A DNA stretch of 64,000 nt. It comes from a virus (Duplodnaviria; Caudoviricetes). Both the position numbers and the translations under genes were made by a program. The stretch lies in IMG/VR virus record IMGVR_UViG_3300032050_000002; one strand, given 5' to 3'. Shown piece after piece: positions 1-38,745 of this stretch (its first letter is position 1; every line of letters starts with the position of its first letter). The notes beneath the pieces were generated by a model. It was not told the DNA's origin, made no database searches, and worked only from the letters and a program-made list of their open reading frames with translations.

Positions 1-453
1 GTTTTTAGTGGGTCAAAACCTGAGACAAGTTCATATATAGATTTAAAAGGTAAATATAAATCAAAATATTTAACATTTAGAGATAAATTAAGTAAACCTG
101 AATGGGTTGACCATTTTATAAAAATAACCGAAGTAGAGAATATGGACTTTGAAGATGTAATTAAAAAATACGATAGTCCAACGTCTTATTTTTATACCGA
201 CCCACCGTACTGGAAAACAGAAAATTATTACTCAAATCACGATTTTGATAGAAATGACCACGAAAGACTTGCAAACTCATTAAAAAATACTCAAGGAAAA
301 TTTTCTTTATCTTATTACGATTTCCCAATTTTATCAGAGTGGTTTCCAAAAGACCAATATAGATGGGAAAGTAAGTTATTTGCCAAGGCGGCGGCCGCTA
401 AAAAAGGAAAGTCCCAAAATATGGGAGAAGAATTATTAATTTTGAATTATTAA
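1..453 (+). CDS. Dam/D12-family N6-adenine DNA methyltransferase, 5'-truncated by window edge
   Basis: Frame is open from base 1; YFYTDPPY catalytic motif and C-terminal EELLILNY typical of Dam-like MTases. Confidence 0.85.
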   Translation, partial: VFSGSKPETSSYIDLKGKYKSKYLTFRDKLSKPEWVDHFIKITEVENMDFEDVIKKYDSPTSYFYTDPPYWKTENYYSNHDFDRNDHERLANSLKNTQGKFSLSYYDFPILSEWFPKDQYRWESKLFAKAAAAKKGKSQNMGEELLILNY

Positions 454-7265: not shown

Positions 7266-8675
7266 ATGATTAATAGAAAACTTCTTTTAGATAAACAGGT
7301 GTTAAATAAATTAAAAACTCTAAATGAATCCGAAGACGATAAGTATTATCGTATGAGTGCTGAGGAGTATCATGATTTACTATTTTTTGCCGGGTATAAC
7401 CCAAGGGTCACAAAACTAAAAAAATTTCAAGGTAAACCACTATGGATTGATGGTGATGTTGATTTACGTAGAACACCAATCAAATCATTAGGTAATGTAG
7501 CGCACATTCAAGGAAATTTAGATATATCAGGAACAAATATTGAAAGTCTGGAAGGTATAACAGTTACAAGACACATTTGGGACTCCAACACTCCTTTAAG
7601 AAGAAAAAAGGATATGCAAGAAATCGCTGACAAAAAAGAACAAATGATGTCCGATAGAGAAAATAAAACAAGAGAAGAAGAAAACCCTGTAATAGATGAT
7701 GAAGATTTAAAAGCGATTGCGTTATTTAAATTTTTGGTTGCTAATGGAGATGTAAATGAACCTGATGATGAAGATAAAGAAACCATAAAAAAGTTAAAAG
7801 CGGAACTTGAAGTTTTACAAAAACAATATGATGAAAGTGAAGATAGTGAAGAATATAATAAACTATATGATAGAATATTTGAAATAGAATCTGAGTTAGA
7901 AGATTTAGAACCTAAATTTGATGTTTATGATATCTTTAAAAAAAGATATTCACATTATGGTATGACCACGTTTGAATTATTAGATTACGATAGTAGAGAT
8001 AAGGAGTATACCGTTGGGACTAGTGAAGAAATGGATGATGCCGCCTATGATTACGCTAAAAGTTATCTTGATGATGTAGGTATTGATGGGTTTAATAACA
8101 GTTTTATAGAGAACTATTTGGATGATAACGCGGTTAGAGAGGTATTTGAAGAACACTATGAAGATTTGGTTAGAGATTCGCCAGATAGTTATTTTGAGCC
8201 CGATGATTATCAGTTAACGGATGAACAAGAATTAAGAATTGAAAAATTACAAGAATATATTGAAGAATTGGAAACTTACATATCCGATAAAGAAGATGAA
8301 CAAAATGATTTAAATGACCAGATAGAAGAACCTGAAGATTATAGAAAAGCGTATGAGGAAATTCAAAAATTAATTGATGAAGCTCAAAGTAAAAAAGACG
8401 ATGCTGAAGAAGAGTTAGACGACATCAAACCAATCCAAGAACCGACAGAAGAAATGATTGAAGATAAGGTACAATCATTAGTTAATGATGATATGGAAAG
8501 TCCGATACGTTCATTAAAAAATCATGGTCTTGAGATTAGAAATTTTATTGATGAGGATAGATTTGCCCAAGGATTAGTTGATAGTGATGGATGGGAGATA
8601 ATGAATGGTTACGATGGGAGATATGATGAAGTTAGGGTTGCGAATGAAGTTTTTTACGTTATGAGAGTTAGTTAA
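7266..8675 (+). CDS. Large acidic coiled-coil protein with short LRR-like N-region
   Basis: 469 aa, very D/E-rich; GDVDLRRTPIKSLGNV..IQGNLDISGTNI; leader LNE; ATATTTAT upstream. Confidence 0.75.
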   Translation: MINRKLLLDKQVLNKLKTLNESEDDKYYRMSAEEYHDLLFFAGYNPRVTKLKKFQGKPLWIDGDVDLRRTPIKSLGNVAHIQGNLDISGTNIESLEGITVTRHIWDSNTPLRRKKDMQEIADKKEQMMSDRENKTREEENPVIDDEDLKAIALFKFLVANGDVNEPDDEDKETIKKLKAELEVLQKQYDESEDSEEYNKLYDRIFEIESELEDLEPKFDVYDIFKKRYSHYGMTTFELLDYDSRDKEYTVGTSEEMDDAAYDYAKSYLDDVGIDGFNNSFIENYLDDNAVREVFEEHYEDLVRDSPDSYFEPDDYQLTDEQELRIEKLQEYIEELETYISDKEDEQNDLNDQIEEPEDYRKAYEEIQKLIDEAQSKKDDAEEELDDIKPIQEPTEEMIEDKVQSLVNDDMESPIRSLKNHGLEIRNFIDEDRFAQGLVDSDGWEIMNGYDGRYDEVRVANEVFYVMRVS

Positions 8676-35764: not shown

Positions 35765-36442
35765 ATGAAAATTTGGCACATATCCGACACACATACATTC
35801 CACGGGTTATTAACAATACCTGAAAACATCGATATGGTTATCCATAGTGGTGACGTTAGTAACCCCCAAAATCAGTATCTAAACAAACCTGAAGTTGAGA
35901 ACTTCATCTATTGGTTCAGTAAGTTACCTATCAAATATAAAGTGTTTGTTGCGGGTAATCACGATACATCTATTGAAAAGAAACTAATAAACAAGATGGA
36001 TTTCGAGTCCAACGGTATTACCTATTTGGAAAATGATTTTGTTGAGATAGAAGGTCTTAAAATTTGGGGTTCACCAATAACTCCAACATTTGGAACAGGT
36101 TGGGCATTTAACAAAAATCGGGCAAAGACTCACGAAGTTTGGGCAAAGATTCCTGATGGAACTGACATTGTTGTTACTCACGGTCCTCCAAAAGGTGTGT
36201 TGGATTTATCTTATGATAGACTGAATCAATTGGAATTTTGTGGTGATAATTCTTTAAAAAAGAAAATGTTATCTTTAAATCCAAAGTTAGTTTGTTTCGG
36301 ACACATCCATAACTGTGAAGATATTATAAACGCTGGAACAATGAAACTATCTGTAAGTGATACCATATATAGTAATGGTAGTGTTGTTACCGATGGTAAG
36401 TTTGGTAAGTTAAGTAGTAATGGTAATGTATTTGAGATATGA
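35765..36442 (+). CDS. Metallophosphoesterase (calcineurin-like)
   Basis: ISDTH, HSGD, AGNHD, THGPP, GHIH. Confidence 0.9.
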   Translation: MKIWHISDTHTFHGLLTIPENIDMVIHSGDVSNPQNQYLNKPEVENFIYWFSKLPIKYKVFVAGNHDTSIEKKLINKMDFESNGITYLENDFVEIEGLKIWGSPITPTFGTGWAFNKNRAKTHEVWAKIPDGTDIVVTHGPPKGVLDLSYDRLNQLEFCGDNSLKKKMLSLNPKLVCFGHIHNCEDIINAGTMKLSVSDTIYSNGSVVTDGKFGKLSSNGNVFEI

Positions 36443-36466
36443 AATACAAAGATAAAACAAGAAAAT

Positions 36467-36820
36467 ATGAACTACAATAACATTATTATTGATTTCTTTA
36501 CTGGAATGAGAGGAATTCATGATTTATTTGAATCTATATATGAAGGATTATATGGTGGTGTTCAACGATATAAGGTAGAACCAAATGAAGGTATCTTTGA
36601 TAAAGATTTCTTAATAAAATTTATTAAGATAAATCAAGGTAATAATGATTTTGATTATGAACTTGGTAGAATTGGTTATAGATTTCTAACTTCAAATGAA
36701 GGGTTAAAAGAATTATCAAAATTCTACTTGAACGAGTTAAAAACATATAAACATGAATATGTATCAACTGAAGTTATTGAAAATTGTAAGAAATCGTTAA
36801 TTAATATAATAAACACATAA
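36467..36820 (+). CDS. Hypothetical protein
   Basis: ORF track. Confidence 0.7.
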   Translation: MNYNNIIIDFFTGMRGIHDLFESIYEGLYGGVQRYKVEPNEGIFDKDFLIKFIKINQGNNDFDYELGRIGYRFLTSNEGLKELSKFYLNELKTYKHEYVSTEVIENCKKSLINIINT

Positions 36821-36857
36821 TTTTAATTTTTTAAGAAGGGTGGTAAATTTTTATTGT

Positions 36858-36911
36858 ATATAACGTCTGATGATAAACAATCGTTTTAATGTTGTTTATC
36901 ATTTGTTATAT
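36858..36911. mobile_element. attC-like site 1
   Basis: ATATAAC-GTCTG-ATGATAAACAA...TTGTTTATCAT-TT-GTTATAT; near-identical core to site 4. Confidence 0.65.
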
Positions 36912-36935
36912 GAATGTAAATTAAAATTTGAAAAT

Positions 36936-37205
36936 ATGAGTAATATAGGTAGAATAATAAAAAATGGCTATTGTAATGGTTTCTTTGGGCGAGATTATGA
37001 TTTTCATAATTCTGTAATCATTGCTGAGGGAGATGAATACATTGTTATTAGAAAAGAAAATGGTATTGTTGAATTTGGTAATCTTCAATCTTGGGACTGG
37101 AATAGAAATGATGATGGAACTTTATCATATGGGATTTCTAATTTACAATGTATGAGTAGAGAAAAGAAACAAGAACTAATTGATAGTTGGTGTGGAGAAT
37201 TTTAA
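36936..37205 (+). CDS. Cassette A hypothetical protein
   Basis: Lies between GTTATATGAA (36905) and its complement TTCATATAAC (37211). Confidence 0.7.
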   Translation: MSNIGRIIKNGYCNGFFGRDYDFHNSVIIAEGDEYIVIRKENGIVEFGNLQSWDWNRNDDGTLSYGISNLQCMSREKKQELIDSWCGEF

Positions 37206-37213
37206 TTTATTTC

Positions 37214-37308
37214 ATATAACGTTTTGCGTATATGCGAGGTACGCCAAACAATAAACTTAAATATTTGTAAACCGCTTCGTGGCGTATCTTGCATATACGC
37301 TGTTAGGC
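37214..37308. mobile_element. attC-like site 2
   Basis: ATATAAC-GTTTT-21-bp imperfect stem...T-GTTAGGC. Confidence 0.65.
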
Positions 37309-37323
37309 ACAGTTGTTTTAATT

Positions 37324-37533
37324 ATGACAAAATTCGATAACGGTTTTATTCTTTCAACCGATGAACTGAAAGAATTGCTTGAAAAAGCGTTTAGTAATGG
37401 TGCTTTATCTCACGCTAAATGGGATGGACAAAGAGATACTTGTTGGTCAAATGTTAATGAAGATATGAAAGAAGAAGTTTCAGTAATTCTTTCTGACCTT
37501 AACAGTAAGGTGGTCACTAACAATTGTGCCTAA
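37324..37533 (+). CDS. Cassette B hypothetical protein
   Basis: Stop codon lies inside GCCTAAC; flanked by GTTAGGCACA / TGTGCCTAAC. Confidence 0.7.
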   Translation: MTKFDNGFILSTDELKELLEKAFSNGALSHAKWDGQRDTCWSNVNEDMKEEVSVILSDLNSKVVTNNCA

Positions 37534-37668
37534 CTATTACAGATATATTTAGGTTTTCTGATATTTATATATAAAATAAAATTATGAGCAAAGAAATGAG
37601 AAAATACATAGACACTTTCAAACAGAGACTAACTGAATCAGAAAACTTGAATATATCTGATGTTAGTG
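37528..37668. mobile_element. attC-like site 3 containing ATATTTAT motif, ATG and leader-peptide coding sequence
   Basis: GCCTAAC-TATTA-23-bp stem (CAGATATATTTAGGTTTTCTGAT / ATCAGAAAACTTGAATATATCTG)-AT-GTTAGTG. Confidence 0.65.
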
Positions 37669-37871
37669 ATAGTAATCAATTCAAAGTAGGGGATAAAGTT
37701 ATAAAAAACGAAGAAACTTGGGAACCAAATGATTTTGATAGTTGGGGAAGAGGAATTGGTGTGGGAATTATAGTTGAGCCTCCTTTTGAAATGGATGAAG
37801 GTGAAGTTGATGTAAGATGGCCTAATGGTAGAAGTTTTGAATTCACACACCAATTACGAAAGGTGAATTGA
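37584..37871 (+). CDS. Leader (from attC-like site 3) fused to cassette C protein (SH3/KOW-like small domain)
   Basis: MSKEMRKYIDTFKQRLTESENLNISDV | SDSNQFKVGDKV...VRWPNG; junction at GTT 37662. Confidence 0.7.
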   Translation: MSKEMRKYIDTFKQRLTESENLNISDVSDSNQFKVGDKVIKNEETWEPNDFDSWGRGIGVGIIVEPPFEMDEGEVDVRWPNGRSFEFTHQLRKVN

Positions 37872-37878
37872 TTATTAT

Positions 37879-37932
37879 CACTAACGTCCGATGATAAACA
37901 ATCGTTTTAATGTTGTTTATCATTTGTTAGGT
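37879..37932. mobile_element. attC-like site 4
   Basis: CACTAAC-GTCCG-ATGATAAACAA...TTGTTTATCAT-TT-GTTAGGT. Confidence 0.65.
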
Positions 37933-37989
37933 TTAGTTAAATTATTGTTTTACGAATGAAAAAAACAGATTATTACGAAATTTATATTT

Positions 37990-38020
37990 AAAACCTGAAA
38001 TAATTTTTCAGGTTTTTTTT
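37990..38020 (+). terminator. Intrinsic terminator after cassette array
   Basis: AAAACCTGAAA-TAATT-TTTCAGGTTTT plus T-run. Confidence 0.75.
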
Positions 38021-38053
38021 GTTTAATTCAAATTAATTTTGTATCTTTGTATT

Positions 38054-38698
38054 ATGGAAACCGATAAAAAGACATATAATAAAGAGATTGATGAGGCGGT
38101 TGAACGTGTTAACAACGGTCAGTTTGTATCAAATGAAGAAGTTATGAAAGAGATTGATGAATTGTTTGTTAAACCGGTAATCTTCCTCGACCACGATGGT
38201 GTCATCTGCCTTTCAACGGAATGGGGTTCTCGTTTCAAAAATAAAGAAGGATTGGACTCTGTATTTGACCGATTTAATGATAAAGCGATTAAGGTATTAA
38301 ATCAGATTATTGAAGAAACAGATTGTGAAATTGTTATTAGTTCGGATTGGCGTTTTCACGCACCATTAGAACAGATGCAAGAACTTTATCGTATTCGTGG
38401 AGTTAAGAAAGTTCCGATTGATTATACCACAACTGGTTTAGATTGGAAACAATTTATGACTATAACACCAAATAATGAACTTGAAGCAACACGTAGTTTT
38501 GAGATTTTAAATTGGTTGGAGGCACATCCCGATGTTACAAAGTGGGTTGCGGTTGATGATTTGAATATGAAGGAACAATACGGTGGTATCGATGGAAACT
38601 ATAAATATGGTTTAACAAACTTTGTTCATACTCCCCGTTCAAAAGAAGGTATTAAACAATCAGGAGTCAAAGAAAAGATAATTAAGTTTTTAAAATAA
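38054..38698 (+). CDS. HAD-superfamily protein (HAD_SAK_2 / RNA-repair type)
   Basis: IFLDHDGVI, IVISSDWR, WVAVDDL. Confidence 0.75.
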   Translation: METDKKTYNKEIDEAVERVNNGQFVSNEEVMKEIDELFVKPVIFLDHDGVICLSTEWGSRFKNKEGLDSVFDRFNDKAIKVLNQIIEETDCEIVISSDWRFHAPLEQMQELYRIRGVKKVPIDYTTTGLDWKQFMTITPNNELEATRSFEILNWLEAHPDVTKWVAVDDLNMKEQYGGIDGNYKYGLTNFVHTPRSKEGIKQSGVKEKIIKFLK

Positions 38699-38745
38699 TT
38701 TGGTAAATTAAAGAAGATTTTGTATCTTTGTATTGTTCTTTGAAA
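38699..38745 (+). promoter_or_regulatory. Host-type promoter plus boxA-like element for the RNA cluster
   Basis: TTTG-N20-TATCTTTG then GTTCTTTGAAA; no ORF follows. Confidence 0.6.

Follow-up and report, generated by a model that had tools for sequence, protein, structure and literature searches.

A probable decayed copy of an integron-like gene-cassette platform on a freshwater jumbo-phage fragment

The IMG/VR virus record IMGVR_UViG_3300032050_000002 is a fragment of 107,291 bases, estimated to be ~37% complete. A stretch of 64,000 nucleotides of it (the window) holds, at positions 36,858 to 37,932, an array of four DNA hairpin sites that alternate with small open reading frames (ORFs). The array sits on a freshwater jumbo-phage fragment and is very probably, as judged from related sequences, a decayed, recombinase-less copy of an integron-like cassette platform of freshwater Bacteroidota phages, many of which are jumbo phages. 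Comparison of these sequences shows units with TAAC boundaries, the insertion of a unit beside a putative attI site, covarying codes at the cassette ends, a folding bias towards one strand, and linkage to a recombinase gene. The system works in an integron-like way but outside the IntI family.

Hairpin sites, end codes, and the folding strand

The four sites in the window (Table 1) have a common layout, in which TAAC is followed by 3-5 unpaired nucleotides (nt), a stem, a loop, the partner arm, 0-2 nt, and GTTA. An earlier reading of this DNA (the original prediction) had proposed the four TAAC...GTTA hairpins with a uniform spacer of 5 nt on the left and 1-2 nt on the right; all four are present and the spacer is asymmetric as proposed, and its lengths vary within the measured ranges. 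With G.T pairs allowed, the stems of sites 1 to 4 are 14, 22, 25, and 14 base pairs (bp) long. All other candidates in the 107-kb record have stems of at most 13 bp, and shuffled genomes yield this weak class only in the generic scan. The four sites are not due to chance. Sites 1 and 4 differ at one of 48 positions (repeat D1), and sites 2 and 3 are unrelated in sequence.

The start of each cassette pairs with its own end and not with the adjoining hairpin. Positions 36905-36925 pair with 37200-37220 in cassette A (repeat pair I9), 37302-37317 with 37519-37534 in cassette B (I19, 94% complementary), and 37655-37683 with 37864-37892 in cassette C (I1, 29 nt, 90% complementary). The repeat finder returned the hairpin arms as I11, I3, and I2. 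The stop codon of ORF B (TAA, 37531-37533) falls within the TAAC of site 3, and a single terminator follows the array. The near-identity of sites 1 and 4, the complementary cassette ends, the stop codon inside a core site, and the lone terminator had all been predicted and are confirmed here, and the attC-like R''/R' logic that the original prediction saw in the cassettes holds in the window as well as in 97 cassettes from ~35 related loci.

These loci were found in IMG/VR by searching with the flanking proteins and with the recombinase described below, and they supply a family sample of 126 unique sites and 97 cassettes; the clustering of hairpin cores was made on 136 sites. The site scan required TAAC and GTTA. 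The resulting consensus is AT-N6-TAAC-G(G/T)TT...stem...T-GTTA-N6-GT, and its flanking AT, G, T, and GT positions are 70-97% conserved, though they were not required by the scan. The two words lie 40-250 nt apart and adjoin in the folded hairpin alone. TAAC is preceded by A in 87 of 125 sites, GTTA is followed by T in 80 of 126, and about 1/4 to 1/3 of the sites have the canonical RYYYAAC/GTTRRRY form. Extrahelical bases were not identifiable in the sites, in which the unpaired spacer is one-sided.

The N6 after GTTA and the N6 before the next TAAC form on average 5.08 of 6 Watson-Crick pairs, and the match is perfect in 58 of the 97 cassettes. With shuffled partners, the mean is 2.29 with at most 8 perfect matches in 2000 shuffles, and the control that pairs the N6 codes of one and the same site gives far lower values than the cassettes. 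The codes are specific to their cassettes, with 61 distinct N6 sequences. The recognition box (R box) has 12 bp, and a G.T pair is conserved at position 11 of the duplex in 69 of 97 cassettes. The hairpin cores themselves fall into 78 sequence clusters among 136 sites, the commonest type (K0) accounting for 24 of the 136 in relatives.

The median unit of the family is 389 bp long. In 95 of 97 units, the longest ORF is a single + strand one (median 91 amino acids, aa), which usually ends 1-23 nt ahead of the end of the next TAAC, and the longest ATG-initiated ORF begins inside the hairpin site in 38 of the 97. Some units are empty, that is, without an ORF (L037 ~276-305, L022 7921-7949, L003 5773-5886, and L007 978-1081). 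Some of these are no more than two complementary end codes with the loop TCGTTTTAATG between them, which is also the loop of the 48-nt K0 hairpin, and others are structured inserts of ~110 nt, richer in G+C, which carry the code TAAGTA and lie beside an attI-like site.

The + strand is the folding strand. Stems were detected in the 126 sites in a strand-symmetric manner, with Watson-Crick seeds and any type of mismatch allowed, and their non-Watson-Crick positions are G.T or T.G in 202 cases versus A.C or C.A in 16. The same detection gave a longer spacer on the 5' side than on the 3' side in 120 of 126 sites. When DNA energy parameters are applied to a set of 126 sites picked with G.T allowed, the fold of the + strand is the more stable in 119 of them. 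For site 2 in the window, the minimum free energy of the DNA is -19.9 on the + strand vs -16.5 on the - strand.

Hairpins on the coding strand that are rich in G.U-compatible pairs, together with the true terminator at the end of the array, are also what would be expected if the structures acted only in RNA, in the processing, stability, or termination of mRNA and with no mobility of the DNA. This explanation is scarcely credible, as it leaves unexplained the TAAC-exact presence and absence of units, the attI-like junction, and the linkage to a DNA recombinase described below. Moreover, the sites and the array match no Rfam family, and ARAGORN and Rfam found no known RNA family inside the array. 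A role in RNA could exist alongside DNA recombination.

Unit boundaries, attI-like site, and recombinase

The boundaries of the units are indicated by relatives that differ by one unit or by one junction. The loci L019 and L048 have a common unit of 98% identity that extends exactly from TAAC to the next TAAC(G), between outer flanks that are unrelated. The loci L031/L033, L032, and L034 are 100% identical through the recombinase and the attI-like site back to a TAAC, beyond which three different cassettes are found. L032 has everything found in L034 and, in addition, one complete unit (hairpin, GTTA-TGTACA, ORF, TGTACA-TAAC), which separates the former last cassette from the attI-like motif. 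Among 67 pairs of near-identical cores, 65 have unrelated flanks on both sides, two have a common right flank, and none has a common left flank only. The L019/L048 and L032/L034 comparisons and the flanks of the core pairs thus suggest that the unit is a hairpin with its downstream ORF and that the exchange takes place inside TAAC(G). The crossover accordingly appears to map to TAAC and not to GTTA. The classical arrangement, in which a hairpin travels with its upstream ORF, was considered and rejected; the hairpins downstream of the cassette with ORF4 (36467-36820) differ between the window and L003, and the common units start at the upstream TAAC.

In ~21 arrays, the last cassette is followed by the motif TAAC-TAT(T/C)ATATAT, which lies 50-70 nt before the ATG of the recombinase gene. 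We read this TAAC-TATYATATAT motif as a putative equivalent of attI. It also precedes the recombinase homologues of Sunxiuqinia indica (59% identity) and of a Salinimicrobium metagenome-assembled genome (MAG; 53% identity), both of which lie at contig ends. In these two contigs (L057 1-200 and L058 1-290, respectively), the attI-like motif opens the contig and is followed by the recombinase homologue, so that the contig breaks where an array would be expected. The motif was absent from the 107-kb record on search.

The window hairpin types recur at other positions in related contigs, with at least nine consecutive sites in L003 and four in L007. A PF00589 search of related contigs revealed in three of them (G001, G003, and G004) a PF00589/PF13495 recombinase gene immediately 3' of the array and in the orientation of the array, and an IMG/VR search with the 265-aa recombinase yielded 40 loci, the contigs of which reach 464 kb. 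Nearly all loci with upstream DNA have 1-19 + strand sites immediately 5' of the recombinase gene, and almost none have sites on the - strand or downstream of the gene. Metagenomes contain thousands of homologues of this enzyme, many of them named XerD in the JGI annotation. The 107-kb record has no match to PF00589 anywhere, which agrees with the original prediction that the window lacks an integrase. The cassette content differs greatly between relatives, which were compared as proposed with the original prediction. Its claim that cassettes are shuffled by a host or distant tyrosine recombinase is upheld for the shuffling, and the enzyme is instead encoded by the phages, directly downstream of the arrays of relatives. 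Transposition of the IS200/IS605 type, which also involves hairpins, was rejected as the adjoining genes encode tyrosine recombinases; no HUH gene was noticed in the loci examined, in which no search aimed at HUH was made.

The enzyme is an Xer/IntI-like tyrosine recombinase without the IntI hallmark. Its 265 aa comprise the domains PF13495 and PF00589, and R131, K156/K159, H215, R218, H241, and Y250 are invariant across 12 diverse homologues. The best NCBIfam matches are XerA with 185.6 bits (cut-off 220) and the integron integrase family TIGR02249, which scores 149.6 bits over two stretches against a cut-off of 265. In the alignment to IntI4 (2a3v), residues 8-176 correspond to 10-180 and residues 205-261 to 257-313, and the IntI-specific segment is represented by 28 residues in the phage enzyme vs 76 in IntI4, or ~48 fewer. 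The additional I2-region segment near the C-terminal catalytic domain, which defines the IntI clade, is thus missing from the enzyme of the relatives. The AlphaFold model (pLDDT, a per-residue confidence score, of 87) matches XerA and IntI4 about equally in Foldseek.

The features suggest the following mechanism. A unit would run from TAAC to TAAC; the hairpin core would come first, then GTTA with a 6-nt code, a single small ORF, the complement of the code, and TAA. In a circularised unit the two codes would pair and the hairpin stem would lengthen. When the last 20 nt of the window units are joined to their own hairpins, the folding energies change from -11.6, -20.4, and -20.6 to -22.1, -33.9, and -31.7 kcal/mol, so that the predicted circle junctions stabilise the hairpins by 10-13 kcal/mol vs their native context. 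The 265-aa recombinase most likely cleaves within TAAC and excises units by site-by-site recombination, and the excised units would then be inserted at the attI-like site ~50-70 nt upstream of the recombinase start codon. We infer a folded single strand as the substrate, the exact bond that is cleaved, and circular intermediates. In addition, some sites may carry expression signals in or next to the hairpin for the ORFs, which point toward the recombinase.

The last point is illustrated by site 3, whose loop contains the start of ORF C. A leader of this type (Met and ~26 aa, ending in ...ENLNISDV(SDS)) is found at 37531-37671 in the window and at L007 40-183, L038 1774-1920, and L051 7100-7240. 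It is 90% identical over 30 aa and runs in frame into unrelated bodies in L007 and L038. At the DNA level, site 3 has 95.5% identity to L007 50-183, where the attached body is unrelated, and the match of ORF C to PHROG 7871 begins at residue 31, just past GTTA. The occurrence of a shared leader on unrelated bodies suggests that some sites provide the following cassette with expression signals and an N-terminal peptide. To our knowledge, the grafting of leader peptides by sites is unprecedented for integrons. The promoter-like box of site 3 is weakly enriched in the window, and a sigma-70 promoter scan did no better than shuffles. The box TTTGTATCTTTGTATT recurs upstream of genes at 38018-38053, at 38699-38734, and, on the minus strand, at 36443-36457 of the window. 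It resembles the Bacteroidota promoter type (TTTG ... TAnnTTTG), which would fit a Bacteroidota host.

The cargo of the cassettes is almost all of unknown function. Pfam and PHROG searches with the window cassette proteins and 10 larger cassette proteins of relatives gave one YopX protein besides such unknowns. The cassette A protein matches PHROG 11714 (unknown function, E 1.5e-9) and has no homologue among the other fetched loci, and the cassette B protein matched neither a Pfam nor a PHROG family.

Two further explanations of the array have to be weighed against the phage-native platform. The sites might be classical attC sites, and the array a cluster of attC sites lacking an integrase (CALIN), with cassettes acquired from bacterial integrons and a host IntI that recombines them. 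The AAC...GTT ends, the imperfect hairpin, and the cassette-specific complementarity of the ends match attC, cassette B even has the canonical GCCTAAC/GTTAGGC, and CALINs that IntI1 can recombine have been reported from virulent phages, one of them a Polaribacter phage (PMC9892861). This origin is nonetheless highly improbable, for the recombinase that co-occurs in more than 30 loci is Xer-like without the IntI insert, most sites misfit RYYYAAC/GTTRRRY, the ORFs are reversed relative to the polarity of the sites, and the cellular relatives of the recombinase belong to Bacteroidota and have the same attI-like motif.

The second explanation takes the hairpins as repeated regulatory elements like the promoter early stem-loops (PeSLs) of T4-type phages, with shuffling by homologous recombination and an unrelated recombinase nearby. 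It draws on the near-identical repeats at sites 1 and 4, the high repetition of K0 in the population, the promoter-like boxes and start codons of some hairpins, and the documented PeSL-mediated shuffling with mini-circles (PMC2839356, PMC4122927). We give it very little weight. Most cores are dissimilar, as the clustering shows, and homologous recombination would explain neither the covarying cassette-specific 6-nt codes nor the TAAC-exact breakpoints and the insertion of a unit at a non-hairpin attI-like motif. The near-universal adjacency of the recombinase and its shared orientation with the array would likewise be left without a cause.

Several points weigh against the assignment of the array to a phage-native, integron-like platform. 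All the evidence is comparative, and recombination was not directly observed. The invariance of TAAC and GTTA follows from the requirement of the scan. As to the unit, 65 of the 67 core pairs are uninformative on which flank travels with the core, only the two remaining pairs and L032/L034 bear on it, and some links between core and body break after GTTA+8 and not at TAAC, as between site 3 and L007. The record is 37% complete, and an intact recombinase could therefore sit elsewhere in the genome. The population evidence given below comes from contigs and not from reads, as the single raw-read run (X22) gave no coverage here. Finally, the recombinase is without the IntI segment that classical integrases use for the single-stranded attC pathway; this IntI-specific domain is described as an adaptation for the integron single-strand pathway (PMC4792948).

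Ends of the window's array, surroundings, and population data

The array in the window is, by comparison with its relatives, apparently a decayed orphan truncated at both ends. At the left end, homology to L003 (95% DNA identity) begins inside the gene at 36453 and stops at 36868. The L003 version of the ORF at 36467-36820 is 21 codons longer and forms a complete cassette between two sites, and the first 21 codons and the upstream hairpin are lost in the window. At the right end, the start of a fourth cassette and a short remnant of a recombinase gene are left (Table 1), and homology to L007 leaps from the fourth-cassette stub to the HAD promoter. The remnant occurs only once in the 107-kb record. 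Since only 28 nt of the recombinase gene remain, the array appears to be orphaned. Deletions would have taken the attI site and the array's left end, along with almost the whole recombinase gene. Cassettes A, B, and C would now be mobile only with a recombinase supplied in trans, by a co-infecting relative, an unsequenced part of the genome, or a copy in a Bacteroidota host.

Table 1. Features of the cassette array and its flanks (window positions)
Feature	Position	Strand	Description
Metallophosphoesterase gene	35765-36442		Left flank of the array; abuts the 5'-truncated first cassette
5'-truncated first cassette	36453-36864	+	ORF 36467-36820 (ORF4; 117 aa, no family); end AT-TGTATA-TAAC
Site 1	36861-36908	+	48-nt hairpin of the commonest core type (K0), loop TCGTTTTAATG
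Cassette A body	36905-37220	+	End codes GTTA-TATGAA / TTCATA-TAAC; ORF 36936-37205, 89 aa
Site 2	37217-37305	+	89-nt hairpin; 21-22 bp stem including two G.T pairs
Cassette B body	37302-37534	+	End codes GTTA-GGCACA / TGTGCC-TAAC; ORF 37324-37533, 69 aa
Site 3	37531-37665	+	135-nt hairpin, 23-25 bp stem; loop with AT-rich promoter-like box and ATG (37584) of ORF C
ORF C	37584-37871	+	95 aa; first ~26 residues within site 3, remainder from cassette C
Cassette C	37662-37885	+	End codes GTTA-GTGATA / TATCAC-TAAC
Site 4	37882-37929	+	Second K0 hairpin
Putative fourth-cassette stub	37926-37955	+	Starts GTTAGGTTTAGTTAAA..., ends after ~30 nt; same start opens complete cassettes in L007 (657-934) and L027
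Putative recombinase-gene remnant	37956-37983	+	28 nt, identical to nt 1-28 of the L030 recombinase ORF (MKKTDYYEI...)
Intrinsic-terminator-like hairpin and T-run	37990-38016	+	Closes the region ahead of the HAD-family gene; 0.2 expected in shuffles
HAD-family gene	38054-38698		Right flank of the array

A relative that is 88% complete and without a recombinase (G002) has a half-site alone after an ORF4-type gene, and platforms of this kind have evidently, to go by such remains, been lost repeatedly. The window copy may thus document how such platforms disappear, and it predicts mobilisation in trans. At L004 4356-4400, in a near-complete relative without a recombinase, only a left half-site (TAAC, spacer, and the 5' arm of a stem like that of site 2) follows the ORF4 homologue, with a terminator behind it. 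The end code of this homologue is unlike those of the window and L003 despite the same gene.

The record has a composition of ~29% G+C and a strongly positive GC skew, and its DNA is present in runs from lake and freshwater metagenomes. When the region was compared by BLAST with 50,697 GenBank phage records, a 7% partial match was all that emerged, which leaves no cultured close relative for comparison. In the contigs of lake metagenomes, bins on the K0 hairpin are 30-50x deeper than the flanks. In run X4, the depth of the cassette C body is 0.16 vs ~45 in the flanks. Cassettes A and B show full identity over 603 nt in X16, where the HAD gene has 15 differences in 561 positions and the genes upstream are missing. 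These patterns of depth and identity fit a recent movement of units between diverged genomes and are not proof of it.

Two side observations concern neighbouring regions. Between 39183 and 39908 of the window, four Rfam tRNA matches (29.7-36.2 bits, full model 1-71) each span 99-135 nt, which suggests tRNA-like genes with large inserts; ARAGORN calls none of the four, and the surrounding 2 kb have a raised G+C of 39%. In L003, an ORF at 7656-8351 resembles a GIY-YIG homing endonuclease, as judged by its translation, and lies two genes downstream of the recombinase in an otherwise structural-looking region.

Comparison with known systems

Integrons are the standard example of structure-specific recombination of single-stranded DNA. 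We consider it probable, with less assurance than the assignment of the array itself, that the phage platform is a self-contained second (or ancestral-like) lineage of the integron type. A minimal Xer-like enzyme without the IntI segment would act on strand-specific hairpins, in which G.T wobbles and a one-sided bulge set the strand and whose sites graft promoters, start codons, and leader peptides onto cassettes; the lineage would be native to Bacteroidota phages, including jumbo phages, and also present in chromosomes. If this is true, either the integron solution has more than one origin or it does not depend on the extra domain. The platform would also provide a concrete mechanism for the fast turnover of ORFan accessory genes in large phages, which may include genes for anti-defence or injected proteins, and a compact structure-specific recombination system for engineering. 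No published description of this platform was found in full-text literature searches.

The array resembles integrons and CALINs in its compact series of single-ORF cassettes and in its imperfect hairpin sites closed by ...AAC / GTT.... The window itself, with four sites and without a recombinase, is like a CALIN. As in integrons, the cassette ends are complementary and a circle would rebuild the hairpin, one strand is biased towards folding, a tyrosine recombinase gene stands beside a non-hairpin attI-like site next to which new units are found, and the cargo is mostly ORFan. On the minus strand, the platform reads in the order of an integron, with the recombinase, attI, and attC-terminated cassettes with exchange at GTT, and the + strand used here would correspond to the recombinogenic bottom strand. 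The covarying codes, the TAAC-to-TAAC units, and the insertion at TAAC agree with the integron cassette as a mobile unit, in a polarity that is mirrored relative to the ORF; an attI counterpart is seen in the relatives only.

In contrast to integrons, the enzyme falls below the NCBIfam cut-offs of both XerA and IntI and is shorter at the IntI4-specific segment. The R box is AT-N6-TAAC / GTTA-N6-GT, with its 12 bp and the conserved G.T at position 11, instead of RYYYAAC/GTTRRRY, and a one-sided bulge of 3-5 nt takes the place of the two-sided unpaired spacer and the extrahelical bases of attC. The ORFs are inverted to the polarity of the sites, with the hairpin ahead of its gene. There is no common Pc promoter, and the ORFs have the orientation of the recombinase gene and point towards it. 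Moreover, phages are the native carriers of the platform. For 21 phages, IntI-type integrons and CALINs are reported by Qi et al. 2023 (PMC9892861), who also show that IntI1 can use some phage attC sites; the part of that paper available to us describes no phage-native platform with an Xer-like enzyme.

The array also shares some features with the PeSLs, although its sites are mostly dissimilar and have only core words and an architecture in common, its codes covary, and a dedicated recombinase and an attI-like site belong to it. Of the modular shuffling seen here, PeSLs are the closest precedent in phages; they recombine by sequence homology and are not known to have a dedicated recombinase. 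The sequence-conserved repeats that would give such homology are not found here, where only sites 1 and 4 are alike and the breakpoints lie at TAAC. Arbiol et al. 2010 (PMC2839356) and Comeau et al. 2014 (PMC4122927) present PeSLs as conserved promoter-terminator motifs. These phage stem-loops with promoters flank small novel ORFs in hyperplastic regions and are associated with modular gain, loss, and shuffling, which the cassettes of the present array also appear to undergo.

A third likeness is to systems in which an Xer-family enzyme acts on a folded single strand or on gene modules bounded by Xer sites. The Xer-dependent pdif modules of Acinetobacter plasmids are of the latter kind. The former is represented by the integration of CTX-phi attP(+) at dif, where Xer recombination takes place on a hairpin-folded single strand (PMC3442271). 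Both of these systems differ from the phage platform in that they employ the host XerCD and 28-bp dif-like sites, and they are not known to have arrays of hairpin-bounded single-gene units, an attI-like platform, or a dedicated element-encoded recombinase. On the other side, the double-stranded core of ~28 bp that characterises Xer/dif sites, with two 11-bp arms around a centre of 6-8 bp, does not describe the TAAC...GTTA hairpin sites, in which the two core words are brought together by the fold.

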